In this document: positions 2 through 24,274 of the stretch, one piece after another
Layout: the number at the start of each line of letters is the position of its first letter
Numbering within the stretch: the stretch's first letter is position 1
DNA from: a virus
Length of the DNA stretch: 64,000 nt
Direction: 5' to 3' (one strand)
IMG/VR virus record: IMGVR_UViG_3300027801_002517
Span: 32,001-96,000 of that record
Translations under genes and position numbers: made by a program
Notes under the pieces: generated by a model
Databases searched by the model: none
Seen by the model: only the letters and a program-made list of their open reading frames with translations
What the model was told of the DNA's origin: nothing

Positions 2-448
2 AATGATTATTTAGGAGAAATAACTTATTCTACACAATTCGATAATAGACCAAGTAATATCATCTCTGGTGTTTTAACTGAAAGTATATCTGTAAACGAT
101 ACTTATCCTGGTGATGTTTTTGCCATCATTCCTGTTCTGGGTAGAAAAACTGGTCCAGTATTACAATATATCGGCGGGAGAACTGAATACACAAGAGATC
201 TTTCAATTAATCTTTTAATGGATTATACAAAGATTCCTTATGGTAGTGGTAGAAATCCACTGTTACTCAAGAAACCAAGTGTCATTGAGCCATCTGCCAC
301 ACAGATAGGTAATTTAATTAAAGAACTGTCTCCTCAAAATGAGCCTGGAATTAGAAAGTATTTCGTTAATCCTCCGTCAGAAAGTTGGGAACCAAAAACT
401 GGATCATATTCTTTCAATCTTACTTGGACATATGAGCTTGATAAATGA
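2..448 (+). CDS. 5'-partial probable virion structural protein
   Basis: The frame of ORF 218..448 stays open back to position 2 (NDYLGEITYSTQFDNRP...). It overlaps the next gene by ATGA and lies in the structural block. Confidence 0.6.
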   Translation, partial: NDYLGEITYSTQFDNRPSNIISGVLTESISVNDTYPGDVFAIIPVLGRKTGPVLQYIGGRTEYTRDLSINLLMDYTKIPYGSGRNPLLLKKPSVIEPSATQIGNLIKELSPQNEPGIRKYFVNPPSESWEPKTGSYSFNLTWTYELDK

Positions 449-849
449 CAAATGAACCTTTAACAGATGAACAAAAAGTTTTGGGTTCTGGACAGGTTTT
501 GCCCTCTGGAGAATCCAACTTTTATGATTATTCCCAAGACCATTCTTACAATGATGGTTCTGGTATTAATGTCAATTTTCCAAGTCCAAGTAATTTTATA
601 GATGCTTCAGGTACAATTAGGACATATGCTCCTAGTGGAAATGTTATAGAGACTTCCGGTATTTTTGCTGCTAATGAATTGAAGACATCTTTTTCTAATT
701 CTATGGATGCGGCATTATCAGGTATCACAGACTTTACTATTTTTAATGATTATATCCATCATACTACAGGTGTAGATAGTGTATCTATACAGATACCATA
801 TCTTTCAGATTATACAATATCTAGCGGTTTTAATCCATACGGAATTTAA
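445..849 (+). CDS. Small Ser-Gly-rich putative virion protein
   Basis: 134 aa, acidic, 8 SG dipeptides, coupled to neighbouring structural genes. Confidence 0.55.
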   Translation: MTNEPLTDEQKVLGSGQVLPSGESNFYDYSQDHSYNDGSGINVNFPSPSNFIDASGTIRTYAPSGNVIETSGIFAANELKTSFSNSMDAALSGITDFTIFNDYIHHTTGVDSVSIQIPYLSDYTISSGFNPYGI

Positions 850-860: not shown

Positions 861-3800
861 ATGAGTGATTATTCGGTAATACCTCCATCAGCAGTGTATG
901 GCAACGATTGGCCTGATCACCATGTGTTACCACAGGGTAAAGGCGGATCTATTTCCCAAGCTGGATGGACTGAGGAAACACAGGGATTCCCCCAGCAAAC
1001 TTTCTTGGGTGCTTCTATTAGAAGTTTTAATATAAGTGCTGGCTTTGGTGATACTTCATCTCAACTAAGTGTAGATTTAGTTAATGATGAATACAACAAA
1101 TCTGATGGCTTACCGGCTGGTCAAGGAGATGATGTCTACCATAGTGGTTTGCTTGATACATTTAGACCTCCTGTAGTCGGTACTCCTGTGTATTTTAAAT
1201 TTGGTAAAAACTTTGCTACGATAGATCAATCTTACAGAAAAACCTTAGATGATACATATAACGAGAGTACTATTCCATCCGTTATTGATTTTCCCACCGT
1301 GACAACTAATGGTGATATCACACAGATTCCTGGTGATAATTACTTCTTAAGAGATACTACTGGTACTGGTGCCAACACAGTTCATACATGGGTTGATAAA
1401 AGTTCATTGCTTGATGCCACTAATAATTCCCGTGGTAAAGATCATTTTGTGTTTGGGGGTATTTTACAGAGTTATACTCAAACTAAAGGTCCAAATGGTA
1501 ATCCATTATACAGTCTAAATGTAACCGACCCAAGAGAAATTTTATCAAATGCTTCTGTGATCTTGAATAATTACCAAGGAACTACTTTTAATAATAAGAA
1601 CCTATTTAATGTATATGGTTTTCTTGAGTATGATGTTAGTGATGAATTGAAAGAAGAAATTGAAGGTACTGATGTTTTACCAAATACTGATTTAGAGTCT
1701 AAAAATATACTCACAAAAAATGTGGATGCACAAGGTATCATTACATATACGGGCGATGATACATATAGTTTTAATAGTTTACCATTTTCTATCAGTAATC
1801 TTCCTCCTTCATTTCCTATTACTGGTCAGGGGTTTGCTAGACGTGGTGATCAAGGTATTCCTTGGTATAGAGTCGATCAGGCATTAACAGCTTTGTTTGG
1901 ATTTAATGGTGCTTTACCAGATGAGTATGTCAATGCTGGATTTGGAGGAACTATTGATTTTAGGGGTTATAAATATGTAGTTGATTTTACTGGTATTCCA
2001 CTCGAAAAAATACCTCAAATGTATTTTATGGATTTCGATCAGTTGACATTAATGGACTTAGCACAAGAGCTTGCTGATGTTATTAGTCATGATTTATTTG
2101 TTAGTCTGTTGCCCGTCATTGATCATCCAGCATATTCTTGGTTGTATAATCTTAATCAGTATAATATTGATAATGGGAATACTACAGATGTTATTACTGG
2201 AGTTATTCGTATAGATGCTATTGATAGATCCGTTCAGCCAGATTATGGTTCAATTAAGTCTTATATTGATGATCTTGCGGTGAATGGTGTTGAGGTTGAA
2301 AATCAAGATGTTGGTTTTGAATTATCTAATGTGACAACTGACAAGTTTGTTGTCGGTGCAAATGAAGTTGACATGTTCTATTTTACAAATCATAGGGATA
2401 GGAACAATTTACAGCTTAGAAGAAAAAATAATGGACTACCTAATGATTTTGAATTATTAGAGGAAACACAGTGGGATTTAGAAACTTCACTCAAACAACA
2501 AATCCTTCCGTTTTATGGTTTCTTAGGTAAAAGTGCTGTCACTATTCCAAGAGGATTTGGTGCATATCAACAGATATTATTAGACACTTCTAAACTGAAT
2601 GCTTATGGAGTTGGTAATTATTATATTACTACTGAACTTGAATTAAGAAATGCATTAAGCAGTTATCAAGATTGGGCTAAATTTTTAACTGATTATAGTG
2701 AATTGTATATTGAAGATCTCTCTGCCGATCAACAGTTCTATAAAGGTTATGCTGGTGCTGCTTTAGTGAATTTACAAGATGATGCTTCAATGCAGTCATT
2801 ATTAGATAAATACTCAGAGACAAGTGATAGAAACAGATTGGCACTTGAGGCTATAAAGAATGGTAATTATGGTGTTACGGTTCCACGTTGTTTATTCAAT
2901 TCTGATAAAGACTTTATGGGTAACGATGGTTATCCCGCAAGCCCTTGTTCTCCTCCTTATGGATATCCATTGTACTACAAACGTGCAGAGAAAATAGGTA
3001 TCTTTCAAGCCGCATCGGCGGATTTTGGGGCACCATATCTAAAAATACAAAGTAATTATGAAGAACTGAAAAAACGTCTAGCAGACAAATTGGATAATGG
3101 TTCTATAGTTGTCGAAGAAGATGATTTATCTGATGTTCTTGAAGATATTATTTCTGGAACAATGGATGATATTGATATATCTAGTTTATCTGCGGGTTCT
3201 TTAAAATCTCTTTATGGTGAATTTGAAGAAGGACGTAAAATTACTAAAGATTACAAGAATTTTTATCAACTGGTTGGTCAAACTGTTAGAGCTGCTAATG
3301 TATTAACAAGTAATAAAAGTTATATAGCTGCTGTTACAGATATTGGTTTAGATGGTGAAAAGAATGCTAAAAAAGTATATGCTTTTCTAAAACGAATTGC
3401 AGAAGAAAATTTAGGTAAGAAATTTTTAGTGAAAATTCCCAAGGCTTGTAATTTATCTTATGATAGTAAATTTGAATTTGATACAAGTGAAGTTGAGATC
3501 GAAAAAGGTCCATTTGGATTTAAGCCACAGCCGATTAATTTCGACGCTGGTTATTCTTCATCTACTGAATTTAATATAGAGATTAGTGGATTATTAACTC
3601 AAATACAAACAATAGATGTTAATCAAGGAACATCAGCAATGAGTAGTAGGGAATTGTTTAATCATTATTTAGATAAGGATGCTAAGGCAGAATATACATA
3701 TGGTGCATTGAAGAATAATTACAATCCCGTTTCTGAAAAGTGGGAGTTTAATTATCAACCTGCTACTAATGGTGGGTTTTTTAACTTTGCTTTACATAAT

Positions 3801-5720
3801 AGAAATTTATCTTTTACAGAATCTTCTGCTCTTAGTGAATCAGAATTACCTTTGTCAACTCAATTTCTTTTAGCCCCAAAAGATTTAAGCACTATCGTTG
3901 ATTACAATGGTAGAATGAAATGTTATGTTAGATATGACAATAGTCAATTTTTGGATATGAGTACAGTATCTAAAGATAAGATCGTACAGCAGTCACAAGG
4001 GGATAGAGGTTTTATCCCTGATATTATGGAGGAATTAGAAAATACAAATCCTGCTCATGTTAATAAAATTAAAATGAATAGAGAGAAGAATTTGAATGCA
4101 ATAGATACTCCAAAAACTGTTACATTTGTTTCGTGTGATATTGATGCTCAATTGTATATGTGTCCAAAGCCCTCTGGTTCACAAGTTACTGTTTATGGCA
4201 GGAATGTAGAATATGTAGCAAATGAAAGACCATTACAATTTAAAGAGGAATCTTCTGGATGTTATAAACCAGTCATTCAAAATCAATATAGAATATATTC
4301 GCCAAGTACCAATGGTGGTGCTGATGGTCAGGTTGTAGAAAATACAGATTTCCAAAGAACATATAATGAATATTTAGATGCTCATTTAATCGATACTGAA
4401 AAAGAAAATCTTGATCCAGATCATGTATATGCCTTAATTACTATACCTGGTAGAATTAAGCCTATCATAGATTCTAGATACAACGATGCAGAACTTTATG
4501 CTGTCAATGCACCCGTGATTAAACATAATTTGACTCAAGATGTGGTGCGAGGCCCGAAGGGTTTTGAAAAACCAGCACCTGCTGTAAATAGGGATGAATT
4601 TACTTTTGACTGTCCATTAGCATTAAGTGATTTTAACAAATTGGATGAAGCGGGAATAACTAATGCAGAAAAAGCAAAAACACTTTTAAATTGGCAAAAA
4701 CAGGAGTTTAAACAGTTCAATGCCGGTATAAGAGCACAACGAGAAGTTATGAATTCTGCATCTCAAGGGAATGAAGATTTTAATGTAAGCAAGTCACAGC
4801 CTTCACCAGTATATCCAGATTTAGTTGCTATGCCATTACTTTCTAACGAAAGGTGCTATGGACCTTGGATGTCTGCGAGTATTATAGATTCCAATGCTTC
4901 AGTAAGATACTCAAATATAGGTGGTAAAGTAGAATTTGTCAAGGATGAAAATCTTGCTCCTTGGAATTTTGCTGGTTATCAATTAATGAACGAGGCTGGG
5001 TCGTTACAGGCTCAATTTTCTAATAGCCTATTATTGTTTGGTGAAAAGGGTAGTTTCTCTATGCCTGAAGCACCAACTGGATTATCTATTGCTGCAGCAT
5101 TAAAAGCTGGTGGTCCTCTTGTCACTTCTATTAATGTTTCTGTTGGTGATTCAAGTATTCGTACCAGTGTAAATATGGATCTATATACTTCACGGTTTGG
5201 TAAATTACAGAAACAAAAAGAAGAATTAATCGGCAAAATTTCGAGAGAAAGACAAAAAATTATTGATCAGAATAATAGTATGGTTCGTCAAGGAATTGGT
5301 AAATCATTTTCGAATGTTAACTTAGCGGCTCCACTATTACAAACAGGGGAAATTTTAGAGAGGGCTGCGGAAGATATGGATACTGTATTTAATCAATTAA
5401 TGTCGAATCAAACGGTGTCTTTTAAGTCTCGTGTTGATGTTACGTCAGCTAGGGGTATAAATGGTAGTCCAACAACAGTACTGAATCGTGGGCAAAGTGC
5501 TGCGACTGAGGGTGATTCAGATGGAATAAGAACAGAGGCTAATTTATCTTCAGCGGCAAGACATTCACGAAAAGATAAAAGGTTTAATAAACGCCCTGGT
5601 GATGACACAGAAATATTCTCCGCAGATGGGAGGAGTAGTTCTCAATTTATTGATGGTGAAGGAATGGATAATATGGACCTAAATGATGTTAGTGATTTAT
5701 TCGGTGAACAAGTTGTATAG
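861..5720 (+). CDS. Very large putative tail/baseplate structural protein
   Basis: 1619 aa, no enzyme motifs recognised, AGGTAGGG SD-like sequence upstream, structural-block context. Confidence 0.55.
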   Translation: MSDYSVIPPSAVYGNDWPDHHVLPQGKGGSISQAGWTEETQGFPQQTFLGASIRSFNISAGFGDTSSQLSVDLVNDEYNKSDGLPAGQGDDVYHSGLLDTFRPPVVGTPVYFKFGKNFATIDQSYRKTLDDTYNESTIPSVIDFPTVTTNGDITQIPGDNYFLRDTTGTGANTVHTWVDKSSLLDATNNSRGKDHFVFGGILQSYTQTKGPNGNPLYSLNVTDPREILSNASVILNNYQGTTFNNKNLFNVYGFLEYDVSDELKEEIEGTDVLPNTDLESKNILTKNVDAQGIITYTGDDTYSFNSLPFSISNLPPSFPITGQGFARRGDQGIPWYRVDQALTALFGFNGALPDEYVNAGFGGTIDFRGYKYVVDFTGIPLEKIPQMYFMDFDQLTLMDLAQELADVISHDLFVSLLPVIDHPAYSWLYNLNQYNIDNGNTTDVITGVIRIDAIDRSVQPDYGSIKSYIDDLAVNGVEVENQDVGFELSNVTTDKFVVGANEVDMFYFTNHRDRNNLQLRRKNNGLPNDFELLEETQWDLETSLKQQILPFYGFLGKSAVTIPRGFGAYQQILLDTSKLNAYGVGNYYITTELELRNALSSYQDWAKFLTDYSELYIEDLSADQQFYKGYAGAALVNLQDDASMQSLLDKYSETSDRNRLALEAIKNGNYGVTVPRCLFNSDKDFMGNDGYPASPCSPPYGYPLYYKRAEKIGIFQAASADFGAPYLKIQSNYEELKKRLADKLDNGSIVVEEDDLSDVLEDIISGTMDDIDISSLSAGSLKSLYGEFEEGRKITKDYKNFYQLVGQTVRAANVLTSNKSYIAAVTDIGLDGEKNAKKVYAFLKRIAEENLGKKFLVKIPKACNLSYDSKFEFDTSEVEIEKGPFGFKPQPINFDAGYSSSTEFNIEISGLLTQIQTIDVNQGTSAMSSRELFNHYLDKDAKAEYTYGALKNNYNPVSEKWEFNYQPATNGGFFNFALHNRNLSFTESSALSESELPLSTQFLLAPKDLSTIVDYNGRMKCYVRYDNSQFLDMSTVSKDKIVQQSQGDRGFIPDIMEELENTNPAHVNKIKMNREKNLNAIDTPKTVTFVSCDIDAQLYMCPKPSGSQVTVYGRNVEYVANERPLQFKEESSGCYKPVIQNQYRIYSPSTNGGADGQVVENTDFQRTYNEYLDAHLIDTEKENLDPDHVYALITIPGRIKPIIDSRYNDAELYAVNAPVIKHNLTQDVVRGPKGFEKPAPAVNRDEFTFDCPLALSDFNKLDEAGITNAEKAKTLLNWQKQEFKQFNAGIRAQREVMNSASQGNEDFNVSKSQPSPVYPDLVAMPLLSNERCYGPWMSASIIDSNASVRYSNIGGKVEFVKDENLAPWNFAGYQLMNEAGSLQAQFSNSLLLFGEKGSFSMPEAPTGLSIAAALKAGGPLVTSINVSVGDSSIRTSVNMDLYTSRFGKLQKQKEELIGKISRERQKIIDQNNSMVRQGIGKSFSNVNLAAPLLQTGEILERAAEDMDTVFNQLMSNQTVSFKSRVDVTSARGINGSPTTVLNRGQSAATEGDSDGIRTEANLSSAARHSRKDKRFNKRPGDDTEIFSADGRSSSQFIDGEGMDNMDLNDVSDLFGEQVV

Positions 5721-5734: not shown

Positions 5735-8700
5735 ATGGCAGATACACATACAATTACAACTACAAATCCCATAATGATCGATATTGGACTTGGGTCTTTT
5801 ACGACGGGTGTCTTGTATAATTGGGTTACTGATGAAAATGGTGCTAATTTAATTAATATTACACCAGATTACTGGGATGCTTTCTTTGACCAGCCCAATG
5901 ATCCTCTCGCTGCGATGCGACATATTCTAACACAAAATGTTCCAGCGGGAAGTGATAATCAGTTTTATATTAAAACCACCAGACCAAAAGATAGGACATT
6001 TGAAAATAAAATCTATACTAATCTCGATGCTGATACTACATATATTTCTAACTGGAAGTATAATGTAAACAATTTAAGCTATTCTTTTAATAGTCTCAGG
6101 ATTGGTGATTTTTCATCTGGTGCTGGAGAATATGCGGATAAGATAACTCCTATCATCCAGATGAGCGAGTGGGTGAATGACAAAAGACATATAAATGAAA
6201 CTACATATCCTGCTCGTGCTGTATTCTTTAGAGATATTCGTCTAAGTAAATCTAAAGGGATTACTTGGACTAACAATGTAGATATTCGTCTACCCGGATC
6301 TGATCAAGTATGTACTATTCCAGTTGAATGGAAACTTGTTTTACAGCAAAAGAAACCTCGTAGAAGTCATGTAGCTGCTACTAAAAATCCAGTTTTTTCT
6401 ATCTCTAATCAAAATTCATTAGGTCAACAATCTGGTGGTAGAGATGACGATGGTCGTCAAATCGGTAGTAAACGAGCTGCTGGTGAATTATCTATGTGGA
6501 GAGATCCTGTTTCTGGTAAAATGCGTGCTGGAAATAAATTGGTTATGGCTGTAATGACTACTGATCTTGCTTCTGCTCCAGCACCTGAAAATGGAGTTGA
6601 AGCTACTCCCAAGGATTCTCAAGATCCCGTCAAAGGGCAAGGGAAAACCTTTGGAAGAGCAAGACCCATTGTTATGAAGGATGGTAATGCTTTTGATTGG
6701 GGTCCAGAATACAAATATAAAAACTCTTGTGGACTTACTACTGATGAAAAAAATGAATTATATGATGTTCAAGTAATAAATGTATTTTCAAATGTTTCCT
6801 TCGTTAAGGGTGAACAGGTAATGTTGACCGATAACGGTGCGGAGGGGGTTTGGCAACCTTTAAAAATAGGTACTACAGATGCCGCTGGAGTTACGCCAGA
6901 GGTCAATGGGTGGGAATTTATGTATTTAGCATCAAATTCAACTCATTATTTTCGCACTGCACCTGTTTTCTCCGTCCTTGGTACACCTGTTGGAGGAGGG
7001 ACTCTCCTTAATTTTTCATCTTATGAAAGTGCTATATATGATTTATATTATGATATCAATAGACATGACAGTATAATTTTAAATGTAGCCGATAGAATAA
7101 TTGCGGTAGGTACAGCAAATGTCGCAGAAAATGGCTATGTACAGTTAACATCTTTTGATTTTATGGGAGATAGTGTTGGGGGTTTAAGAGGTGCTAAACA
7201 CGCATTGTCAAATACTCAATTTGGAGCAAGAGTAGATAAAGAAGAAATACACGCAATTAATGATAGATTACCAGGCAATACAACTTCTCCGTTTTTTGGT
7301 TGTGTATTTCCAGGTGGATATACTGGTGGTGAAAAGTATACAAGTTATAATACCCAGCTTAATACTCCTCTTGTAGCCACAAATTCAAATTACATAAAAA
7401 CTGTTCCTATTGGGGAAACACCATTTAGTGCTGGCAACTCTGCTAGAACTGGTAATAATTTGGAAACACCGGGGGATATGTTTTCGTCATTTACTGATGA
7501 AACACTTAAAAATCTACCAGCAGATATAGCATTAAATGCTAATTCTGCCAGTACAAATGGTGCTCCAATTCCTATATTAACAGAATTACACCACGCAGCA
7601 AAATATAGAGACAATTATTTACCAGCTACCAGTGACAATGGTGGTTCATTTAAAAGCCGTTTTAATACTTTTTTATCTGATGAATCCAAAAGATGGGCGT
7701 GGTTAAAGACCGCAGATGAAACACCTGCTTATGATTTTGTACCTTTAGATAAAACAACTATACAATTTCGCCCATTAAAAGCAGAGGTTTATGCTTCTCT
7801 TGAGGTTAATGGTGTAGCTTTTCCAAATCTATTTGCTAAAGAATTAGGTAGATTTGGTAGTCAAGAGTGGAAATTATTAGATGATAATTTAGGACCAATA
7901 TCAGATGCAGTGTTGACTCGTGCTGGAACTGGTGGAATTATTGGTCCTCATGGGCAAGGTGCTATAGACTCTTTTGCTTATGGAGTTAAAGACGGTCTTC
8001 TTAATTTACCACCAGATTCAACTGATTATCCATTTCCATATTGGGTTTGGACTAATCAAGGTGACTGGTTGACTTTTGACGAACGACCTGCTGGTGCGGT
8101 TGGTGTTATTGGTGCTAAATGTACAGTTACTGCTACTAATGTTATTACATTCCAAACGGAAAATAATTATGGTATGGATGATTATAAATCAGAGGGAACG
8201 ATTACAAATCCAGCCGGTATAAATCATTCATCGTTTCGTAATGGTACTTATTCTGATTTAAATTGTACAGAAATGTTTGTAAGAATATATCACGCACATC
8301 CTCGACATCTAACTATTTACGACCCAAGATACTTCGCCATACATCATTTTGCTGATGGACCAGGAGATACTGTAATTGGGAAAACTTATTATAACGGCTC
8401 CAGTGAAATCGAATACGCCGACACACCAATAGATCTGCTCAATGCCACTTTTGGAGACCCACCCGAAGAGTATACACAAGCCGCTGATGATAATACTATT
8501 GGTTATCCAAATAACTATTATATATCTGACTCACTAACATATGACGGTGGTGTTGATGTTAGAGTGCCCACATTAATTGGGAACCTTGGTGGGGACCAAG
8601 AACTTGGTGTTATACCTAATATAGGCGAAGAGGTCTATTCAGATTCTCCGTATAGAGAATATAATGACTGGCAGGTTCAAGGTGCTCATCGTGGCAATTT

Positions 8701-9517
8701 ATTGCCTTCTATATCTACAGCAAGGACTATTGGTTTAGGGGGTTGGGGAATTGAATATGATGATACTAGTGGCAGTACAGGAGGCACAGGTTATAGTGAA
8801 TCTGATAGATTTACTACGGACGGTGGCAATGGTACTGGTATTCTTCTAAAACCAATTCTTAATAATGGCTCTATTACCACTTTTGAAGTTGTTGATGGAA
8901 AATTAGGTTATAATTTTAGACCTGGTGATTTCTTTTCTGAAGAAATTTTACAGAATGATGAACATAGTTGGGATTCAGCTCAAGTGAAAATTGTTCCAAC
9001 TGGTACTGTGACTGGAAAAGATCTCAAAGCTTATATTGCTTTTGGTATAATCACTGATTCTCCAACTACTATTAATAGACCCGCAGAAGCTTCGAGTTCT
9101 TCATTTACTAAAATAACTGGTAGTGTTCCTACACATCCTTCGTTTAGCCCTATATTTAACCAAATGTATACTGGCACAGATTCAGTACCAGTAGAAATTA
9201 CTAATCCCAGCTCAGACAATAAATATGATGTATTTTTACATTTTCATAATGATATTTCACACACATTTGGGCAAACTATGACTGCAGCTTTTGTACCTAC
9301 TGCTATAGACCAAGTAATTCAACTTAAGATGATACCAGATGGTTCAGCGAGTAGTGCAGCATCCGCTTCTAGCAGTGCCAGTTCAAGTTCAAGTTATGCT
9401 GATAGTAATGCTGCTACAAGTTCTGCTGTCTCTAACATTCGATCTCAAGCATTTCAGAATACTCTAACTGGTGGAAATGCTGGTGTTGTAAGGTCTACTA
9501 GCCTCTTTGGTTTTTAA
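5735..9517 (+). CDS. Large putative tail/baseplate protein with Ser/Ala-rich C-terminus
   Basis: 1260 aa, Gly/Thr/Asn-rich. Contains a GGTGY...GSIT..V..GY segment resembling myovirus baseplate/fibre repeats. AGGA SD upstream. Confidence 0.55.
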   Translation: MADTHTITTTNPIMIDIGLGSFTTGVLYNWVTDENGANLINITPDYWDAFFDQPNDPLAAMRHILTQNVPAGSDNQFYIKTTRPKDRTFENKIYTNLDADTTYISNWKYNVNNLSYSFNSLRIGDFSSGAGEYADKITPIIQMSEWVNDKRHINETTYPARAVFFRDIRLSKSKGITWTNNVDIRLPGSDQVCTIPVEWKLVLQQKKPRRSHVAATKNPVFSISNQNSLGQQSGGRDDDGRQIGSKRAAGELSMWRDPVSGKMRAGNKLVMAVMTTDLASAPAPENGVEATPKDSQDPVKGQGKTFGRARPIVMKDGNAFDWGPEYKYKNSCGLTTDEKNELYDVQVINVFSNVSFVKGEQVMLTDNGAEGVWQPLKIGTTDAAGVTPEVNGWEFMYLASNSTHYFRTAPVFSVLGTPVGGGTLLNFSSYESAIYDLYYDINRHDSIILNVADRIIAVGTANVAENGYVQLTSFDFMGDSVGGLRGAKHALSNTQFGARVDKEEIHAINDRLPGNTTSPFFGCVFPGGYTGGEKYTSYNTQLNTPLVATNSNYIKTVPIGETPFSAGNSARTGNNLETPGDMFSSFTDETLKNLPADIALNANSASTNGAPIPILTELHHAAKYRDNYLPATSDNGGSFKSRFNTFLSDESKRWAWLKTADETPAYDFVPLDKTTIQFRPLKAEVYASLEVNGVAFPNLFAKELGRFGSQEWKLLDDNLGPISDAVLTRAGTGGIIGPHGQGAIDSFAYGVKDGLLNLPPDSTDYPFPYWVWTNQGDWLTFDERPAGAVGVIGAKCTVTATNVITFQTENNYGMDDYKSEGTITNPAGINHSSFRNGTYSDLNCTEMFVRIYHAHPRHLTIYDPRYFAIHHFADGPGDTVIGKTYYNGSSEIEYADTPIDLLNATFGDPPEEYTQAADDNTIGYPNNYYISDSLTYDGGVDVRVPTLIGNLGGDQELGVIPNIGEEVYSDSPYREYNDWQVQGAHRGNLLPSISTARTIGLGGWGIEYDDTSGSTGGTGYSESDRFTTDGGNGTGILLKPILNNGSITTFEVVDGKLGYNFRPGDFFSEEILQNDEHSWDSAQVKIVPTGTVTGKDLKAYIAFGIITDSPTTINRPAEASSSSFTKITGSVPTHPSFSPIFNQMYTGTDSVPVEITNPSSDNKYDVFLHFHNDISHTFGQTMTAAFVPTAIDQVIQLKMIPDGSASSAASASSSASSSSSYADSNAATSSAVSNIRSQAFQNTLTGGNAGVVRSTSLFGF
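9344..9433 (+). repeat. Low-complexity Ser/Ala coding tract
   Basis: Encodes SASSAASASSSASSSSSYADSNAATSSAVS. Confidence 0.8.
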
Positions 9518-9579: not shown

Positions 9580-10320
9580 ATGGCAGCTATTACATTTCAT
9601 ATAAATAACTTTGAAGCGGCAGCAAATCAGACTACTGAAGCTACATTGATTCGACATGACCTTGGTTCAGGTCTTGGTTTCTATGGTGGTGGATTTGGTA
9701 TTTCCGTGCCTGTTGCTGGCTATCAAGATACAACTTTCGTCACCAGTGCTGATGGTACTACTCAGGCGGTTCAGACGCAGAATACAAAATATGTTTCAGA
9801 AAGTGGCTTATCTTTCAATAGTGCTGGTTCTGCTGGTACATCTGGTATTCCTAACTTTAAAGCACCACTCAATATTAGATTTACTCATGATTCTGCTGTT
9901 AGTGTTCAGAATTGTAAATTGAGAATTTTTGATAGAAGTGATATTGGAACTCATGCTACTGAGGTTACTACTAAAGCTTATGAATTGAGACATCCTAATC
10001 CTCTTGATGGACATAGTGCTGATAAAGGACATTTAGCACATCGTGGTTCAGCTAATCACGGCTGGACAGAATATGACCCTACAGAAGGTGGCACTCCACC
10101 CGATTTGACTTTAACAGCATCTCCTGGTACAAGTGGATTAAATACTACAGCGGGTGATGTACTACCTACAGGTGATGGGTCTTATTTCAATCATCTGACT
10201 AAAGAAGGTGCAGCCCACCAAGCTACAAGGCACGATTGGTATTTAGCATTATCTGCTTCTCCAACTACCATTGGTAGTAAAACAAACTATGGATTATACT
10301 TCACTTTAGAGTATATTTAA
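9580..10320 (+). CDS. Putative virion structural protein
   Basis: 246 aa, Gly/Ala/Thr/Ser-rich, strong SD, own promoter and terminator. Confidence 0.55.
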   Translation: MAAITFHINNFEAAANQTTEATLIRHDLGSGLGFYGGGFGISVPVAGYQDTTFVTSADGTTQAVQTQNTKYVSESGLSFNSAGSAGTSGIPNFKAPLNIRFTHDSAVSVQNCKLRIFDRSDIGTHATEVTTKAYELRHPNPLDGHSADKGHLAHRGSANHGWTEYDPTEGGTPPDLTLTASPGTSGLNTTAGDVLPTGDGSYFNHLTKEGAAHQATRHDWYLALSASPTTIGSKTNYGLYFTLEYI

Positions 10321-11501: not shown

Positions 11502-12265
11502 AATTCAACCTCAATAAAGCGTTTAGATTTAGACGGAAAACTTTCCTTAATAGACTCTAAATGTTCAATAATATTATCAAGCAGTTTTTTAGTTCTACTT
11601 AACGATGCAGCATTTAATGCCTTAACTCTTATAACAACAAATCCTCTTGATAGCAATGTTCCATTTTTCTTTAGATCAAACTTTTCTTGTTTTCTTAAAT
11701 GATCATCTCCCCATATTGGTAAAAAATGTGATGGACCGTCTACCTCTATTATAGTCTTCAAATCAGGAATGTACATATCTATTTCTAATTTTTCCATAGG
11801 AATTAAATTTTCGTTATGGAAGTCTACTGAGTATCCTGCTGAAGATAATCCCTTCAAAATTTCTTTTTCAAGCTTTGACCCTTCTTTAGCTGTCCTACGA
11901 ATTGCATTAATGCCAGATGAGATCATTTTTTGTTTGTCTTCTTCTGATCTGGATTCCCATCTTTTTCGGGCTTCTTCTGCTCTTCTCTGTTTGACATCTA
12001 CATCCATATCATCCCAATAACCCTCCATGCTACTGCTGATTTTTAATTTTTCAGCTTCGGTTCTAATTTTCCCCTTTGTTGGGTGTGTAGACGTACCCTT
12101 TTCCAAAGAAACCTTTTGAGCTTCACTGGCATTTCTGGTTTCAATACCATTTTTTATTAATGTCCTTCGGATTTTATTGGGGTATGTCTGTAGCTTTTTT
12201 GCTATTTCGTGTGTACTGTGACCATCTTCATACATAGTGATGATTTTATTATCTATTTTGCTCAT
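11498..12265 (-). CDS. HTH + NUMOD3-like + Vsr/DUF559-type endonuclease (homing-endonuclease-like)
   Basis: STHEIAKKLQTYPNKIRR HTH; KGKIRTEAEKLKIS NUMOD3-like; EIDMYIP..IIEVDGPSH nuclease motif. Confidence 0.7.
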   Translation of the reverse strand: MSKIDNKIITMYEDGHSTHEIAKKLQTYPNKIRRTLIKNGIETRNASEAQKVSLEKGTSTHPTKGKIRTEAEKLKISSSMEGYWDDMDVDVKQRRAEEARKRWESRSEEDKQKMISSGINAIRRTAKEGSKLEKEILKGLSSAGYSVDFHNENLIPMEKLEIDMYIPDLKTIIEVDGPSHFLPIWGDDHLRKQEKFDLKKNGTLLSRGFVVIRVKALNAASLSRTKKLLDNIIEHLESIKESFPSKSKRFIEVEL

Positions 12266-12708
12266 GTTAACACCTCTAATAATTCTATAGCATCAATGTG
12301 CTCAAATTGGTGTACTGGTTTCTTACCAGTAATTCTGTAAAATTCCTTTGAATCCTCTTCGTCTTCGGTAATAACGTCTATAGTATTTGAAACTTCTAAA
12401 ACTTTTAGTATATCTTTATCATCCCATCTATTGTAGATATGGAAGAGTTTAAATTTGTTCACAATTTTATTGGCACTAAATGCATTATTCAGTGATGTTG
12501 TGAACAATGTTCCCGTGAAGTTCCACATATCCGCAGCGTTAAACATCCCAAAAGCTGGAATTAGAGGATTGTAATCAATATCATTATAGAACAGACTAGC
12601 ATCCTTTATTTTTCTACGTCGAATACTGCTATTGAGAGTTTTGAAAATATCTATGTTGCGATTTTCCGTATTTACTTTGTCTATATAAAAACCAATATTC
12701 TTAAGCAT
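12262..12708 (-). CDS. Hypothetical protein, possible glycosyltransferase-like fragment
   Basis: 148 aa ORF coupled to fcl. Confidence 0.45.
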   Translation of the reverse strand: MLKNIGFYIDKVNTENRNIDIFKTLNSSIRRRKIKDASLFYNDIDYNPLIPAFGMFNAADMWNFTGTLFTTSLNNAFSANKIVNKFKLFHIYNRWDDKDILKVLEVSNTIDVITEDEEDSKEFYRITGKKPVHQFEHIDAIELLEVLT

Positions 12709-13630
12709 TCTTATTCTCCATATACCAATTAATTGTTGTTTGTAAACCTTCTTTGAGTTCTACCTGAGCTTCGAATCCCAATCGTTCTTTAGCACGAGAT
12801 GTATCTAAACATCGACGCGGTTGACCGTCTGGCTTGGATGGGTCATAAATAATATCTCCTTTATATCCCATAATATTTGTAATCTCTTTTACAAGATCCT
12901 TGATTTTAATTTCCTTGCCAGTACCAATATTAATAGGCTCTGGACTTAAGTTATCACTATTGATGGCCTTGACAATTGCTTGTCCACAATCTTCAACAAA
13001 TAAGAATTCACGAGAAGCTTCACCAGTTCCCCATAAAGTAATTGATGGATCACCATTTTCTATTGCTTGATGAACTTTCAAGATAAGTGCGGGAATTACG
13101 TGACTAGAAGTCAGATTGAAATGGTCGTGAGGTCCGTACATATTTACTGGAATTAAATTAACACCATTAAAATCGTATTGCTCATGATATGCTTCCACCA
13201 GTCTCATAAGAGTCTTTTTGGCAATACCATAAGGTGCATTAGTTTCTTCTGGATAACCATTCCATAAATCTTCTTCCTTAAAAGGTACAGGTGTGAATTT
13301 GGGATATGCACAAACTGTTCCAAGTAAAATAAACTTAGGGACTTTTGCTTTCATCGCTGAATGAATTATGTTTGTACCCATGATTAGATTGTCATACATA
13401 AACTTTCCGGGATTTTCCTGATTTGCACCAATACCTCCCACACTTCCAGCAGTATGTATAATGACATCTGGAACACTTCTACTGATAACAGTATCAGTGC
13501 ATCTACATTTACGTAAATCATAAGGCTTACTGCCTATTGACCTAACTTGGCTACTGCCAAATGTTTCTTGTAAAATTTTGGTCAGGTTTGTTCCCAAAAA
13601 TCCCGTACCACCTGTTAGTAATATTCTCAC
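12701..13630 (-). CDS. fcl: GDP-L-fucose synthase / GDP-colitose synthase (Fcl/ColC family)
   Basis: TGGTGFLG, VGGIGAN, LGTVCAYPK, YGIAK, SHVIPAL, WGTG..SREFL, KPDGQPRR. Confidence 0.9.
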   Translation of the reverse strand: MRILLTGGTGFLGTNLTKILQETFGSSQVRSIGSKPYDLRKCRCTDTVISRSVPDVIIHTAGSVGGIGANQENPGKFMYDNLIMGTNIIHSAMKAKVPKFILLGTVCAYPKFTPVPFKEEDLWNGYPEETNAPYGIAKKTLMRLVEAYHEQYDFNGVNLIPVNMYGPHDHFNLTSSHVIPALILKVHQAIENGDPSITLWGTGEASREFLFVEDCGQAIVKAINSDNLSPEPINIGTGKEIKIKDLVKEITNIMGYKGDIIYDPSKPDGQPRRCLDTSRAKERLGFEAQVELKEGLQTTINWYMENKNA

Positions 13631-13653
13631 TAGTAATAATCTCCTCTAAAATA

Positions 13654-14358
13654 TTATAATCCCTTTGCTAACCAACCACCATCAACGTATATATCTTGTC
13701 CTGTTATATAGGAAGATGCGTCGGATGCAAGAAAAACAAAAGTACCAACCAGATCCTTGGGTGTTCCCCATCTATTTAGCATTGTTTTTTGAGATCTCTG
13801 CTTGTATGTTTTTTCGTCTTGCCAACTATTCTTTGTCATCTCTGTAATAAAGTATCCAGGTCCAACATTATTAACTCGAATACCATATTTACCTAAATCT
13901 AGTGCGGCTGATTTCGTTAGCTGCTTTAAAGCACCTTTAAATGCAACATAAGCAGGATTGTTTGGAAAGGCCAGTTCTGCATTTAGACTAGTGACATTAA
14001 TAATTGATCCTCCACCAGCACTTTGCATTTTAGGAGTAATGTATTGTATTAATTTATATGGAGCTTTTAAATTTACTTCATATGTTTGATTCCAAAATTT
14101 ATCAGGATAGTCCACGAAATCTGAAACATGTGTGACTCCTGCATTGTTAACTAAAATATCAATTGTATCAAATTTATCAAGATGTGTTTTCACTTGATCG
14201 TGATTTGTTATATCACACAGAATTGTATCATCACTTTCAATGATATCCAACCCGATAACATTAGCACCAAATTCTCTTAATCCATCTGCAATAGCTTTGC
14301 CGTTTCCTCTAGCGGCACCAGTGACAATAGCCACTTTATGTTCCAATGAAAATATCAT
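13654..14358 (-). CDS. SDR-family oxidoreductase
   Basis: TGAARGNG, NNAG, YVAFK, DGG. Confidence 0.9.
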   Translation of the reverse strand: MIFSLEHKVAIVTGAARGNGKAIADGLREFGANVIGLDIIESDDTILCDITNHDQVKTHLDKFDTIDILVNNAGVTHVSDFVDYPDKFWNQTYEVNLKAPYKLIQYITPKMQSAGGGSIINVTSLNAELAFPNNPAYVAFKGALKQLTKSAALDLGKYGIRVNNVGPGYFITEMTKNSWQDEKTYKQRSQKTMLNRWGTPKDLVGTFVFLASDASSYITGQDIYVDGGWLAKGL

Positions 14359-14786
14359 AGTTCTTCTACCAATTCGATTAGAGTTCCATCTGGGTCTTTA
14401 CAAAATGTAAGCATAACAGGAAAATCTGGAGATTTTTGTGGTTCGCATATAACAGTTACGTCATTTTCTAATAGCTTGTCATATAATTCCGAAAGGTTTT
14501 CTACAGTAACTGCGAAATGAGAACAACCAATATAGGTTATATCCTTATTTAATGTAATGACACCCTCGTGAGATTTATAATGTAATAACTCTACAAGCCC
14601 TCCATCATTATCTGTCATTTTAACAGTCCTGACATTCACTCCTTTTAGCCCAGAAAAGTTATCGATGTGCTGTCCAGACTCATCTGCTTCTACTATAATA
14701 GAGAATCCTAAAATGTTTGTATAAAAATGAATAGATTTTTCCAAATCTCCAACAGTTATTCCCACATGTCTAAATTTAACACTCAT
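14355..14786 (-). CDS. VOC/glyoxalase-family protein
   Basis: HVGITVGDLEKSIHFY, VELL, HFAVTV, DPDGTLIELVE. Confidence 0.9.
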   Translation of the reverse strand: MSVKFRHVGITVGDLEKSIHFYTNILGFSIIVEADESGQHIDNFSGLKGVNVRTVKMTDNDGGLVELLHYKSHEGVITLNKDITYIGCSHFAVTVENLSELYDKLLENDVTVICEPQKSPDFPVMLTFCKDPDGTLIELVEEL

Positions 14787-15493
14787 TTATTTTTCCTCGC
14801 AATTGAAAACAACATCGGTTCTTTTGAGAATCTAACTAATACATTAAACCAATGTGAAACTTCTAGTGGTGTGTCGTAATTTGGTTTGTATGGTATAGGC
14901 AACTTTCGGAATAATTTTATCAAAGGTTTCAGATAAGGGTATTTCCATAAAAAGGGTAACTGAAAAAAGTGTTCCACATAAATGTCTTCAAATCCTGCTA
15001 ATAACAGTGCTTCAGCAAGTGATTGTTTAGTCCAAGGTGTTACATGGGTATGATCACAATAGAATGGTCCCCAGTACGTATATTCCCATGCAGGTGTCAT
15101 CATTACAGCAGTGCCTCCTGGTTTTAAAGCCTCATAGGTCGCATTCATCAATCCCATAGGATTTTTCATATGTTCAATTACTGATTTAGTAAAAATCAAA
15201 TCATATTGCCCAGCATATTCTGGAGGTAAACTTTCAGATTCCAAATCAATTATTAAACTTTTGTGACCTTCAACCATATGAGTCATTAAATCAAATCCTG
15301 TGACATCAAATCCCATATCAGAGAAAACGTCTAAATATTCTCCTCTACCACATCCTAAGTCTAAAAACTTACCAGATGTCTTGCCTGTTCTTTTTACTAA
15401 TTCCTTTCCAAGTGCATATGGATATTGTGTTTTAGGAGTTTTTTTATCGGAATAAGTGATATCTAAATATTTTTCATTATTCATTATACTCAT
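14783..15493 (-). CDS. Class I SAM-dependent methyltransferase
   Basis: FLDLGCGRG, KSVIEH, LKPGG, DHTH. Confidence 0.9.
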   Translation of the reverse strand: MSIMNNEKYLDITYSDKKTPKTQYPYALGKELVKRTGKTSGKFLDLGCGRGEYLDVFSDMGFDVTGFDLMTHMVEGHKSLIIDLESESLPPEYAGQYDLIFTKSVIEHMKNPMGLMNATYEALKPGGTAVMMTPAWEYTYWGPFYCDHTHVTPWTKQSLAEALLLAGFEDIYVEHFFQLPFLWKYPYLKPLIKLFRKLPIPYKPNYDTPLEVSHWFNVLVRFSKEPMLFSIARKNK

Positions 15494-16743
15494 TGTAGCA
15501 CTCCTTCCAAGACATCAAATGCCTCATTTATTGCTTCTACTGTTATAGTGAGAGGTGGTCCTAGCTTGATAGATTTACTCCAAGTATTGACTGGAAATAT
15601 ACCATTGTTGAAACAAAACTCAACCACTTCATCTGCTGTTTGTTTATCTTTAAAGATTATACCTGCAACCATTCCTTTAACATTTACATAAGAAATGGAA
15701 TCATATTTTTCTAATGTTCTCAGTCTGTCTTCAAATACTTCCACTCTTTTAGACAAGTCTTCTTGAAATTGTTTGCTTGTTAAGTAGTTTAAATTAGCTA
15801 ATCCTGCTGCACAACACAAAGCATTGCCTGCATGAGTACTACTCAAGTTAGTATCGACATCAATAATTTCTTTAGTAGATAGAACAGCAGACATTGGCAA
15901 TGAAGAAGTTATAGCTTTACCCAAACAAATAATATCTGGTTCATAGTCACCATATGTCATATATCCGTACAGTTTTCCCATTCTATAAAATCCAGATTGA
16001 ATTTCATCAAAGCAAACCAATGCACCATTATCTCTAGCAAATTTGTATAAATTTTGCAGGTATGATTGTGGATACATTTGTGCGGTTGGTCCTTGATATG
16101 TTTCAATAAAGAATGCGGCAATTTGTTCTGGTGGTGGTAATAAACTTGCATCGAATGCCTCGTCTTTATCGTATGGAAAATCAATAAATATAATATCGTC
16201 ATCAACAAGATTGGACCACTTAGTGCTATCCTTGTTGCCACAGATTAGATCAGAGCCAACAGTCCTACCATGATAACTACCATTGAAACTGACAATATAT
16301 TTTTTGTCATTCTTTTTAGCCCATATCTTTATTAACCTATAGGCAGCATCAGTGGCTTCACTACCTGAATTTAATAGAACAACTTTTTCAAAATGGTCAG
16401 GCGAACAATCTAAAAGTTTTTCTGCAAATTGTTTTCTAATATGCGTATAGTACTGATATGAGTATACTAAATCATCATCCAATTGTTTCTTAATTGCATT
16501 ATTTATTTCAGAATTAGAGTGTCCTGCATTAGATACAAAAATACCCGAAGAAAAATCTATCCATTTGTTTCCATCTTCGTCAAAAATAGAAAAGTCTTTT
16601 GCTCTATTCCACCAGATAGGAGATTGAGGATTTATAGAAGTAGATTCATAGTTATACCTTATACTATCTCGTTCCTCATTATAAAGTTTAAAGTCATTTC
16701 TAATAATTCGATGTTTAGTTTCTATCAGATTTACACTCGGCAT
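15490..16743 (-). CDS. Class III PLP-dependent aminotransferase
   Basis: WIDFSSG, NSGSEA, SYHGRT, FDEIQSGFYRMG, LGKAIT, STHAGN. Confidence 0.9.
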   Translation of the reverse strand: MPSVNLIETKHRIIRNDFKLYNEERDSIRYNYESTSINPQSPIWWNRAKDFSIFDEDGNKWIDFSSGIFVSNAGHSNSEINNAIKKQLDDDLVYSYQYYTHIRKQFAEKLLDCSPDHFEKVVLLNSGSEATDAAYRLIKIWAKKNDKKYIVSFNGSYHGRTVGSDLICGNKDSTKWSNLVDDDIIFIDFPYDKDEAFDASLLPPPEQIAAFFIETYQGPTAQMYPQSYLQNLYKFARDNGALVCFDEIQSGFYRMGKLYGYMTYGDYEPDIICLGKAITSSLPMSAVLSTKEIIDVDTNLSSTHAGNALCCAAGLANLNYLTSKQFQEDLSKRVEVFEDRLRTLEKYDSISYVNVKGMVAGIIFKDKQTADEVVEFCFNNGIFPVNTWSKSIKLGPPLTITVEAINEAFDVLEGVLQ

Positions 16744-17459
16744 TTATTTAAGCTTTCTAGCAAAACATTTTCTTGGATTTCCAACTGATGAGTTAATAAA
16801 TCAAATTCATACTGGGCATCGACTTCAGTAATAAATTCTGATTCATATGGAAGGATTTTGGTTGAAAAGGCAGAATTGCCAGACTCTATAGTTTCCCTTT
16901 TAGTAATATCTAAATAACCATTAGGTTGATATGCTTTAGGAAATTTTTGTCTTGGTAAATTTGTATAATCTTTTATACCATCAAAATCCTCAAAGAATCC
17001 TTCGCAATATCCTTCTTCACCTAATTTAAAAACCTTATAGGGAGATTCTGGTAATTCATGCATTGACCTCAATGCACTCATTCGGTGCCTGTTATCAAAA
17101 TAAAACTCTATACAATTGTCTATGTTCTCTGGATTCCGCAAAGGCGTTGTTGGTCTGACATATGCAACATCATTAACATCGTATAACTGAAAAAAGTGAT
17201 TAATAACTTGCCAATCTGATGAGTTATCCTGAGCATATTCTTCTGGTCTCTTTAAAATCTCTGCCCCATAAGATTTGGCAACCTCTGCAATTTCATCGTC
17301 TTCTGTTGAGACAACAATTTTATCAATTAAAGAACTCATCTTACATGCTGTAATACTATAAGATATGAGAGGATGTCCTTGTAATAGTTTAATGTTTTTT
17401 CTTGGAACACCTTTACTACCACCTCTAGCGGGAATCAATGCAATCAATTTTTTAGACAT
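16731..17459 (-). CDS. neuA: Acylneuraminate cytidylyltransferase (CMP-nonulosonate synthetase)
   Basis: IPARGGSKGVPRKN, VSTEDDEI, RPTTPLR, RQ...NG. Confidence 0.9.
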   Translation of the reverse strand: MSKKLIALIPARGGSKGVPRKNIKLLQGHPLISYSITACKMSSLIDKIVVSTEDDEIAEVAKSYGAEILKRPEEYAQDNSSDWQVINHFFQLYDVNDVAYVRPTTPLRNPENIDNCIEFYFDNRHRMSALRSMHELPESPYKVFKLGEEGYCEGFFEDFDGIKDYTNLPRQKFPKAYQPNGYLDITKRETIESGNSAFSTKILPYESEFITEVDAQYEFDLLTHQLEIQENVLLESLNKCRV

Positions 17460-18273
17460 TTACTGTTTTCCTTAATTTCTTTGCGATTGGGATCTCTGAA
17501 TCATACACTACCTTCTTACCATCACCCAACATCAATTCAATTTTACGAATTGCCTTACATAGTGCGTCAGCATTCTCGATAGAAGCAGCTTGATCGGAAC
17601 CATAGTCTGCTCTATCGTGTGTAATATGGAACTCTATACATTCTGCACCTATTGCAGTTGCGGCAACACATGCGTCGTGACCATTATAGTGGTTGGAAAA
17701 TCCAACCTTACATGACGGATGTTGTTGCTTTAGAGTTTTAATGTGAAGAAGATTTAATTCTTCTGCTTTGGTAGGGTAGGTACTAGTACAAGCAAGAATA
17801 AATTCTATGTTATCTAAAATAGACATAGCAATATTTATTTCTTCCTCTGTACACATCCCAACCGATAAAATAATAGGCTTTCCTGTTTCGTTTAGCTTGT
17901 TCAAAAAATTAGTGTTTGTTACAAGTGCAGATGCCACTTTGTGATATTTCACATCAAGGCATTGTACATCATCTATACTTTTCACATCCCAACAGGAAAC
18001 AATAAAATCTAATCCCATATCTTCAGAATACTGTTTAAGACCTTTATATTGTTCAATAGAAAATTCTAATCCTTCTTTTTGATCTCTATTAGTATCTCCC
18101 CAAGGTGACTCTCTTGGTGTATCTAATTCTTCTTTAGTATAAACACTTTCAATATCTCTCTTTTGAAATTTTACAGCATCCGCCCCTGCTTGATATGCTT
18201 GTTTAATTAATCGTTTGGCCAGTTTAATACTTCCATTATGATTAATTCCAATTTCCGCAATGATATAAGTCAT
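17452..18273 (-). CDS. neuB: N-acetylneuraminate/nonulosonate synthase, short form without SAF domain
   Basis: IIAEIGINHNG, AVKFQKR, STYP, GFSNH, IEFHIT, GSDQAAS. Start moved to the SD-preceded MTYII at 18273. Confidence 0.9.
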   Translation of the reverse strand: MTYIIAEIGINHNGSIKLAKRLIKQAYQAGADAVKFQKRDIESVYTKEELDTPRESPWGDTNRDQKEGLEFSIEQYKGLKQYSEDMGLDFIVSCWDVKSIDDVQCLDVKYHKVASALVTNTNFLNKLNETGKPIILSVGMCTEEEINIAMSILDNIEFILACTSTYPTKAEELNLLHIKTLKQQHPSCKVGFSNHYNGHDACVAATAIGAECIEFHITHDRADYGSDQAASIENADALCKAIRKIELMLGDGKKVVYDSEIPIAKKLRKTVNV

Positions 18274-18295
18274 AACATTTCCTATTGTTTTTGGT

Positions 18296-18943
18296 TTATA
18301 AGACATAATTTGATTTTCCGCCATCGAAATTAATGGTTACACCCGTGAGATATTTAATGTCTTTATCTACAATAGAAGATATAAAATCACCTATTTCTTT
18401 TGTTGTACCAACTCGTTTAACTGGTATTCTATCCTCAAGTTTAGGAATATCCTTACACAAAGTTTTCAATCTATCTGTGTATATTGGACCCGGTGCAATG
18501 TTGATACAAGTAATTCCTCTATCACCTAAAATTTTGCTCAAGCATTTAAAAACACTAACAAATGCAATTCGGTACGCATTTGACAACATAAGTTTAGTAT
18601 CTGGCTCTTTAATGTTGTATGATGTTATCAGAAAAATATATCCGTTATCGTTTATTTGTGCCTCTTGGATAATTTTCAAAAACCCATAGAACAGTTGATT
18701 ATGGTATAAATCACAATCTTCTTTAGTAATTTCATGAAATGGTTTGGAGGGTGGACCACCAGTATTTAATACTAAAATGTCTATAGGATCTTGATCATTT
18801 AGAAAAGATTCTATTTGTTCTATATTAGATGTATTCAATTCTTTAGAAGAAGTTGCTTTAACATCACAACCTATAGATACTAAAGAATCTGTAATTCCTT
18901 TTCCTATGCCTCTACTACCAGCAGTAACTAATGCTTTTTTCAT
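18296..18943 (-). CDS. SDR-family oxidoreductase (atypical active site)
   Basis: TAGSRGIG, LNTGGPP, SNAYR in place of YxxxK, FDGG. Confidence 0.85.
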   Translation of the reverse strand: MKKALVTAGSRGIGKGITDSLVSIGCDVKATSSKELNTSNIEQIESFLNDQDPIDILVLNTGGPPSKPFHEITKEDCDLYHNQLFYGFLKIIQEAQINDNGYIFLITSYNIKEPDTKLMLSNAYRIAFVSVFKCLSKILGDRGITCINIAPGPIYTDRLKTLCKDIPKLEDRIPVKRVGTTKEIGDFISSIVDKDIKYLTGVTINFDGGKSNYVL

Positions 18944-19656: not shown

Positions 19657-19670
19657 AATACATTTCCTTA

Positions 19671-20375: not shown

Positions 20376-20378
20376 GTT

Positions 20379-24272: not shown

Positions 24273-24274
24273 TT

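Follow-up and report, generated by a model that had tools for sequence, protein, structure and literature searches.

Why does a small protein encoded in a phage tail gene block carry eight Ser-Gly (SG) dipeptides when its composition predicts about two? The question is raised by the open reading frame (ORF) 445..849 of a 64,000-nucleotide window, by which we mean the whole stretch of viral DNA analysed here (bases 32001–96000 of a 157,369-bp contig with 36% G+C, IMG/VR record IMGVR_UViG_3300027801_002517). A first-pass annotation had taken xSG (x, any residue) to be the acceptor sequon for the phage's own glycosyltransferases, which would give the virion a glycan coat. We find that SG is in directional, Ser-specific excess in the fibre-type proteins of this phage, and we consider it probable that the dipeptide serves as a structural turn or hinge in a small tail-tip protein whose folding depends on assembly; the glycan-sequon reading is not needed to explain the data.

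The ORF itself is as follows.

445..849, plus strand: SG-rich protein of 134 amino acids (aa), from the ORF call and its translation

Recounting its product reproduced the figures of the first-pass annotation, namely 20 Ser, 12 Gly and 8 SG, and the computed expectation of 1.79 SG agrees with the value of about 2 given there. The tripeptides are, as had been listed, GSG, PSG, GSG, ASG, PSG, TSG, LSG and SSG, and we place them at residues 15, 21, 39, 55, 64, 71, 92 and 127; the residues before SG are thus G, P, G, A, P, T, L and S, and those after it Q, E, I, T, N, I, I and F. The copies are also dispersed and not repeat-encoded, as claimed, with no tandem repeats found and a single 17-nt direct-repeat pair that lies away from the SG sites. 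Shuffling the protein gave at least eight SG in 2 of 200,000 trials (p = 1e-5), and a second run of 50,000 gave p = 6e-5; the reverse dipeptide, GS, occurs only twice. The eight serines use five codons (TCT three times, TCA twice, and AGT, TCC and AGC once each), and the glycines use GGA or GGT. Among all protein–dipeptide pairs in the whole genome, represented by 187 greedy ORF calls, this excess is the strongest for proteins of up to 300 aa and the ninth overall. The 17-nt imperfect direct repeat (window 520-536 and 742-758, plus strand) encodes F-Y-D-Y and F-N-D-Y, possibly because a unit of the form 'SG ... F-x-D-Y' was once duplicated within the gene.

Homologues carry the same signature. 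Close-to-moderate homologues number 21, all of them metagenomic, and a full-library search returned 82 cluster representatives at E <= 1e-3, which are 69–271 aa long except for one spurious NHL protein; because this search had no length limit, fused forms would have shown up. Judged by these matches, the 134-aa protein is a member of an unnamed family of small proteins from marine metagenomes. For alignment we took 84 sequences, comprising 75 of the 82 representatives and nine from the set of 21; the fragments P0013, P0060, P0073, P0074, P0081 and P0088 and the NHL protein P0076 were dropped. The 84 rows contain 501 SG against 127.7 expected, an observed/expected ratio (O/E) of 3.92, and every member lies above its own expectation, 80 of the 84 at least twofold. 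Other dipeptides stay near an O/E of 1 (GS 0.87, TG 0.98, AG 0.84, NG 0.92 and DG 0.94), and SG outnumbers GS by 501 to 111; the excess is therefore directional and Ser-specific. The eight sites of the 134-aa protein, all on the plus strand, differ in how widely they are shared.

487..492, plus strand: SG site at residues 15-16 (GSG), variable; SG in 23 of 84
505..510, plus strand: SG site at residues 21-22 (LPSGE); SG in 68 of 84 and Ser in 82 of 84, the most conserved Ser
559..564, plus strand: SG site at residues 39-40 (GSGIN); SG in 46 of 84, Gly in 62, Ser in 51
607..612, plus strand: SG site at residues 55-56 (ASGT..TY); SG in 70 of 84
634..639, plus strand: SG site at residues 64-65 (PSG), lineage-specific; SG in 6 of 84, with D 26, N 14, S 11 and T 8 in the Ser column
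655..660, plus strand: SG site at residues 71-72 (SGIF); SG in 51 of 84, with Gly 67, Ser 53 and Thr 9
718..723, plus strand: SG site at residues 92-93 (LSGITDF), variable; SG in 17 of 84
823..828, plus strand: SG site at residues 127-128 (SSGF), lineage-specific; SG in 7 of 84

Four of the eight sites (residues 21, 39, 55 and 71) are conserved and the other four variable. Elsewhere in the family, core columns lacking a conserved SG account for 193 SG, and insert columns of low occupancy for 73. Gly is conserved as well as or better than Ser at two of the four shared sites (G 67 and S 53 at residue 72; G 62 and S 51 at residue 40), and this, together with the occurrence at residue 64 of D, N, S and T, the usual turn-formers, looks like conservation of a structural type. 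Neither the 134-aa protein nor the family profile found anything significant in sequence searches of Pfam, PHROG, NCBIfam and the Protein Data Bank (PDB), the one NCBIfam row being non-significant (E = 0.059, 12.5 bits against a cut-off of 315 bits). Searched individually against Pfam, the 84 members share no family and none matches NHL at E <= 1. For the 134-aa protein, Foldseek returned no matches in the PDB, and a search of a protein atlas gave no usable match.

Beyond this family, SG is in excess across much of the structural block. We defined the structural set as all 45 plus-strand ORFs of that block, a few enzymes included, which leaves 142 ORFs as the remainder. The structural set has 355 SG against 201.3 expected (O/E 1.76, z = 10.8), which places SG at the top of the 400 dipeptides, the next having z = 3.6; the remaining ORFs have 111 against 103.7 (O/E 1.07). 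This is the comparison that the first-pass annotation had suggested, and it came out as predicted there, both here and in G004 (1.86 against 1.13), a complete relative of 172,984 bp with terminal repeats whose homologue of the 134-aa protein is 36% identical. G004 has 370 SG against 198.9 in its structural ORFs (rank 1) and 124 against 109.5 in the others (rank 56). In the structural set of the analysed phage GS and TG stand at 1.07 and 0.89, SG outnumbers GS by 355 to 216, and removal of the three most SG-rich proteins still leaves 175 SG against 125.1 (1.40). The hexamers that encode SG are enriched in frame (355 against 201.3 +/- 14.2), neither of the remaining frames shows enrichment (z = 0.7 and -1.0), and the serines draw on both Ser codon families (AGT 40%, TCT 41%), so the signal lies at the protein level. 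Individual proteins of the block compare as follows, as observed against expected SG.

975-aa fibre: 52 against 15.9
5382-aa protein: 96 against 47.9
704-aa protein: 32 against 12.4
539-aa protein: 13 against 4.4
321-aa protein (tail-fibre PHROG): 10 against 3.3
154-aa protein (Gp80-like): 6 against 1.7
major capsid protein: 2 against 2.2
portal: 0 against 2.6
tape measure: 19 against 16.4

The excess tracks the fibre type of protein and not virion proteins as a whole. Two further proteins had been cited as carrying recurrent xSG: the count of 4 in 9580..10320 (plus strand) is right but is no significant excess (2.28 expected, p = 0.18), and the count of 3 in 59814..60467 is likewise right but compares with 2.28 expected (p = 0.41), in an ORF on the minus strand and outside the structural block. 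For the 975- and 704-aa proteins, family and PDB searches returned nothing beyond non-significant or marginal matches: UspA1 for the 975-aa fibre (E = 0.2, a weak and non-significant PDB sequence match), a lactococcal phage structural protein (E = 0.007) and Bactofilin (E = 0.0064, below the cut-off).

The surroundings of SG are equally uneven. After the 501 SG of the family, I follows 156 times, E 76, V 72 and L 33 (I, V and L together 261); the second residue is L, F, N or I, P precedes SG in 132 of the 501, and Glu after SG is common only at the LPSGE site. The structural set favours V or I at position -3 (2.2-2.3x), A at -2, V, W or I at +1 and A, L or F at +2. Most SG of the 975-aa fibre lie within a tandem SGVA(V/I)SGWA unit of the type TIINSGVAVSGWA, and those of the giant 5382-aa protein are dispersed and often followed by I, L, V or M, then any residue, N and L. 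We read these patterns as SG marking the start of short, strand-like segments.

The genomic setting places the 134-aa gene near the end of a plus-strand structural block that continues across the contig ends. The block starts with the large terminase, portal, cement protein and major capsid protein, followed by a Gp80-like head-fibre protein; its middle holds ORFs of 1462, 1252 and 539 aa, a GT2 gene, the 975-aa ORF, smaller tail genes and the 704-aa ORF; and its end runs from the 1942-aa tape measure through ORFs of 120, 5382 and 572 aa to the 134-aa gene and then to ORFs of 1619, 1260 and 246 aa. The minus strand beside the 134-aa gene carries a sugar operon and replication genes. The immediate neighbours in the window are these.

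2..448, plus strand: upstream 572-aa gene, of which the C-terminal 148 aa are in the window; its TGA overlaps the ATG of 445..849 (ATGA)
861..5720, plus strand: downstream tail-block ORF, 1619 aa, SG-poor (5 against 10.1 expected)
5735..9517, plus strand: tail-block ORF, 1260 aa, SG-poor (4 against 9.8 expected)
9580..10320, plus strand: 246-aa ORF, the last of the plus-strand block (the SG count of 4 given above)

The ATGA overlap with the 572-aa gene assigns the 134-aa gene to the tail-tip portion of this structural operon. The same order, consisting of a giant ORF, one of about 575-650 aa, the target, and ORFs of about 1700 and 1400 aa, recurs in 13 of 13 IMG/VR loci that contain a homologue (29-92% identity), some of these loci being near-duplicates of each other. 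To judge from gene position, the 134-aa product would be a virion component, and it could equally be an assembly factor. The 572-, 1619- and 1260-aa proteins have no match in Pfam, PHROG, NCBIfam or the PDB. The two ORFs that follow the G004 homologue are SG-poor too (3 against 8.3 and 6 against 8.7), so that here and in G004 a conserved SG depletion (in the 1619- and 1260-aa ORFs) adjoins the conserved SG excess of the 134-aa protein. The 5382-aa ORF lies outside the window (genome 14581-30729, plus strand; locus L002:382-16530), after the tape measure block and ahead of the 572-aa gene, and ends 1271 bases before window position 1; at its position relatives have open-ended ORFs of 2560-2750 aa that run off the locus edge, and G004 has an ORF of 4141 aa. 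No cultured relative was found: in a comparison with 50,697 phage records, the large terminase reached 25-27% identity at best.

Eleven comparison phages, analysed with the same ORF caller, provide a background for these values. Each line gives the genome-wide SG O/E and rank.

T4: 1.12, rank 52
T5: 1.14, rank 33
Che8: 1.09, rank 78
MaeS: 1.19, rank 31
PBC4: 1.38, rank 1
Lambda: 1.40, rank 2 (glycosyltransferase families not scanned in lambda)
SPO1: 1.06, rank 120
HTVC008M: 1.40, rank 1
phi38:1: 1.08, rank 88
P-SSM2: 1.22, rank 1
SPP1: 1.20, rank 43
Analysed phage: 1.53, rank 1
G004: 1.60, rank 1

In PBC4 the top SG ORF is the annotated receptor-binding protein (21 against 8.7), and no GT1 or GT2 glycosyltransferase match rises above threshold. 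Among the ORFs of at least 400 aa in HTVC008M, SG is ranked first (O/E 1.58), with the three most SG-enriched large ORFs in the baseplate/fibre block; this phage has no GT1 match, and its GT2 match reaches only 17.5 bits, below threshold. An SG excess in tail proteins is therefore not peculiar to glycosyltransferase-rich phages. The NHL-repeat protein P0076 (Pfam E = 1e-74) has 27 SG against 6.7, only 4 GS, and 5 TG against 7.0, which indicates that a purely structural repeat can yield the full SG signature. Homology to this protein was considered and rejected: the 134-aa protein matched it (E = 2.8e-8 over 7 stretches), but against the family profile the NHL protein reaches just 6.2 bits, and we keep it as a motif-level analogy. 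NHL beta-propeller repeats thus resemble the family in their directional, Ser-specific, roughly fourfold SG excess and differ from it in lacking homology. SG beside hydrophobic strand residues in a fixed register is part of the likeness to such structural Ser-Gly-containing repeats of beta-rich proteins, among which the head repeats of trimeric autotransporter adhesins may also be counted.

How might SG serve such proteins? We infer a turn or hinge role, in which each SG would form a tight turn or hinge ahead of a few hydrophobic residues of strand-like pattern (I/V/L directly after SG, any residue, and L/F/I); fibre-type proteins would use the same device in the fixed register of their tandem repeats, as in TIINSGVAVSGWA of the 975-aa fibre. 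In this uncultured, long-tailed marine phage, the 134-aa protein would be a conserved small product of the tail-tip gene block, its gene being translationally coupled, on this model, to the 572-aa gene through the ATGA overlap. It probably does not fold alone and would gain its shape inside the tail-tip assembly. From the 84-row alignment, AlphaFold2 (AF2) produced an extended chain consisting mostly of coil (pLDDT 69.9, pTM 0.26; pLDDT 43.8 with a 19-row alignment), in keeping with folding only within a complex. A homotrimer prediction with three copies of the 134-aa protein (score 0.01, mark 0.42) gave no verdict and was used neither way.

Several observations weigh against this structural role. 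NG and DG, the classical turn dipeptides, show no enrichment (0.79 and 1.12 in the structural set, besides the family values given above), so a generic 'Gly turn' leaves the demand for Ser unexplained. In no confident three-dimensional model does an SG fall at a turn; the one usable AF2 model is mostly coil. The lineage-specific insert regions of the family hold 63 SG against 21.2 expected, with 20 GS, and the family's SG are spread over 102 distinct column pairs, 69 of them used once; SG in inserts and scattered columns looks like selection for the dipeptide itself. Measured independently of composition, as the SG:GS ratio, the directional excess of this phage (1.53, p = 6e-9) and of G004 (1.75) exceeds that of every one of the eleven comparison phages, which range over 0.91-1.46 (lambda 1.46, HTVC008M 1.25, P-SSM2 1.15). 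Finally, the clade carries a large glycan operon, which in this phage lies within the window.

12262..36102, minus strand: sugar-nucleotide/glycosyltransferase operon of about 24 kb, with NeuB (two), a cytidylyltransferase, DegT (two), GT1 (three), GT2, a GT29-like gene and others

The statement that the genome has about ten glycosyltransferases was a fair one, given nine candidates in the window and one GT2 gene outside it. Six of the nine reach the Pfam cut-off, two match PHROG only, and one is a sub-threshold GT47 candidate (window 25714-26568; PF03016, 20.7 bits against a 33.4-bit cut-off). In all, four GT1, two GT2 and one GT29-like gene lie above Pfam cut-offs, with two further PHROG-only matches. 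The GT2 gene outside the window (PF00535, 43-45 bits; genome 146620-147648, plus strand; locus L004:5421-6449) sits inside the structural operon, between the genes for the 539-aa protein and the 975-aa fibre. As a link to the SG-rich fibres it was rejected, because G004 lacks it at that place and has equally SG-rich fibres. Among the nine relatives' records searched, no glycosyltransferase-free member of the clade was found: eight have GT1 genes, and the remaining one, a fragment at 67% completeness, probably breaks off before the site at which its near-identical twin carries the island.

Could the serines be glycan acceptors after all? In this alternative, the SG serines, or a subset at exposed fibre turns, would be O-glycosylated in the cytoplasm by phage glycosyltransferases that read the folded repeat and not bare xSG, an idea that we regard as unlikely but that is compatible with a structural role, as both can be true. 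The excess is clade-wide, Ser-specific, directional and limited to appendage proteins, it extends to the lineage-specific inserts described above, and the phage has about ten glycosyltransferase candidates and a sugar-nucleotide operon, with the GT2 gene between two SG-rich genes as a suggestive detail. A precedent also exists in E. coli, where the BAHT-family enzymes TibC and AAH, which are soluble and cytoplasmic, heptosylate Ser in autotransporter beta-helices, TibC acting on Ser and not Thr in the repeats of TibA; of the mapped TibA sites, one is the Ser of an N-S-G-G turn and the other is not SG (PMC4358343, as excerpted). The weaker SG excess of phages without a GT1 or GT2 match above threshold weakens the link to the phage's own glycosyltransferases, and the NHL-repeat protein reaches the same SG O/E and Ser-specific direction. 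Bare xSG carries too little information for a cytoplasmic sequon, and SG is not depleted in the non-structural proteins (the 111 SG at O/E 1.07), as a simple cytoplasmic sequon might require. No GT9 domain (PF01075, BAHT/TibC-type) was matched in the genome, and the GT14, or xylosyltransferase-type, domain (Branch, PF02485) had no matches in the 157-kb genome and none in a Pfam scan of 74 + 40 ORFs. We judge it improbable, though worth stating, that the clade's glycan machinery uses the Ser of SG turns in fibre and tail-tip proteins as its acceptor, in a phage counterpart to autotransporter hyper-glycosylation, and that the SG excess is the footprint of a glycan coat on the appendages. It is quite improbable, in our view, that SG marks some other function, such as a flexible hinge for beta-strand augmentation onto partner proteins, a site where an assembly chaperone docks, or modification of the serine in another way: the extended, non-globular AF2 model of moderate local confidence and the turnover of SG sites in variable regions while the count stays high (80 of 84 at least twofold) would suit such a role, but nothing specific indicates any of these, and no kinase, protease or other modifying enzyme was linked to the motif in this analysis. 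That the excess reflects chance, local S/G-rich composition or an oligonucleotide bias of the DNA is hardly credible. One protein at a Poisson p of 5e-4 among thousands of protein–dipeptide pairs would be weak alone, but the excess was replicated in 84 of 84 homologues, it has a direction (SG:GS of 501:111 among the homologues, 355:216 for the structural set), and its hexamers are enriched in frame only (355 against 201 +/- 14, z = 10.8) with both Ser codon families in use, which together refute this explanation.

Known glycosylation systems bear on the same choice. In eukaryotic proteoglycans, glycosaminoglycan is attached in the Golgi at Ser-Gly with acidic flanks. The proteoglycan analogy drawn in the first-pass annotation shares with the present case the Ser-Gly dipeptide and a Ser acceptor, but it fails where tested: the genome has no GT14/xylosyltransferase-type domain, and the flanks are not preferentially acidic (hydrophobic I, V and L dominate after SG at 261 of 501, with Glu at 76). 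The one candidate for an exostosin-type (GT47/GT64) chain-building enzyme is the sub-threshold GT47 match, and the setting would be a bacterial cytoplasm and not a Golgi. For phages, Freeman et al. in 2023 reportedly described virion O-glycosylation of mycobacteriophages, and the Che8 virion is said to be glycosylated. The likeness lies in phage-encoded glycosyltransferases, which there decorate the phage's own structural proteins and here are predicted from the genome. The differences are that the capsid protein here has no SG excess (2 against 2.2) and that Che8, serving as the comparator with a glycosylated virion, has none either (O/E 1.09), although another system need not share the motif. 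A passage that cites this work, and that names only 'Mycobacterium phages', reports glycans at the C-termini of the capsid and tail-tube subunits (PMC12619734). By analogy, the closest glycosylation precedent would be TibC/AAH heptosylation, not the proteoglycans. The N-S-G-G turn of TibA, as given in the excerpt (PMC4358343), resembles the N-S-G-V found in the repeat of the 975-aa fibre. The motif statistics of the structural set and the family are Ser-specific (TG 0.89-0.98), and tandem repeats exist in the fibre, where Ser acceptor sites would have to lie. As differences, the GT9 domain is absent from the phage genome and the TibC substrate is an autotransporter and not a phage protein. Our literature search found no report of a Ser-Gly motif in phage tail proteins or of glycosylation in this clade.

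Elsewhere in the window, two separate ORFs make up a homologue of DNA polymerase III alpha (36457-40328, minus strand), with the PHP and NTPase domains in 38691-40328, the finger domain in 36457-38058 and an RNase_T-type exonuclease ORF between the halves (38018-38698). A 429-aa ORF with a full-length DUF1501 match (51405-52694, minus strand; E = 1.5e-92), an unusual passenger for a phage, adjoins ribonucleotide reductase genes. HNH/homing endonuclease-like ORFs lie beside the sugar operon (11498-12265, minus strand) and among the replication genes (45610-46032, minus strand).

In conclusion, the appendage proteins of this widespread clade of marine phages stand out by a directional, Ser-specific SG excess, a statistic that has been replicated and that peaks in one small, unnamed protein family of at least 82 clusters. 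A dipeptide excess alone does not identify a sequon, and this calls for caution. If the motif is only structural, as we favour, the finding would be a modest note on the build of fibrous phage proteins. If the serines are modified, it would name the acceptor sites for the phage glycan operon of about 24 kb, with the 134-aa protein among the densest substrates, and it would provide a sequence footprint for spotting glycosylated virions in metagenomes.

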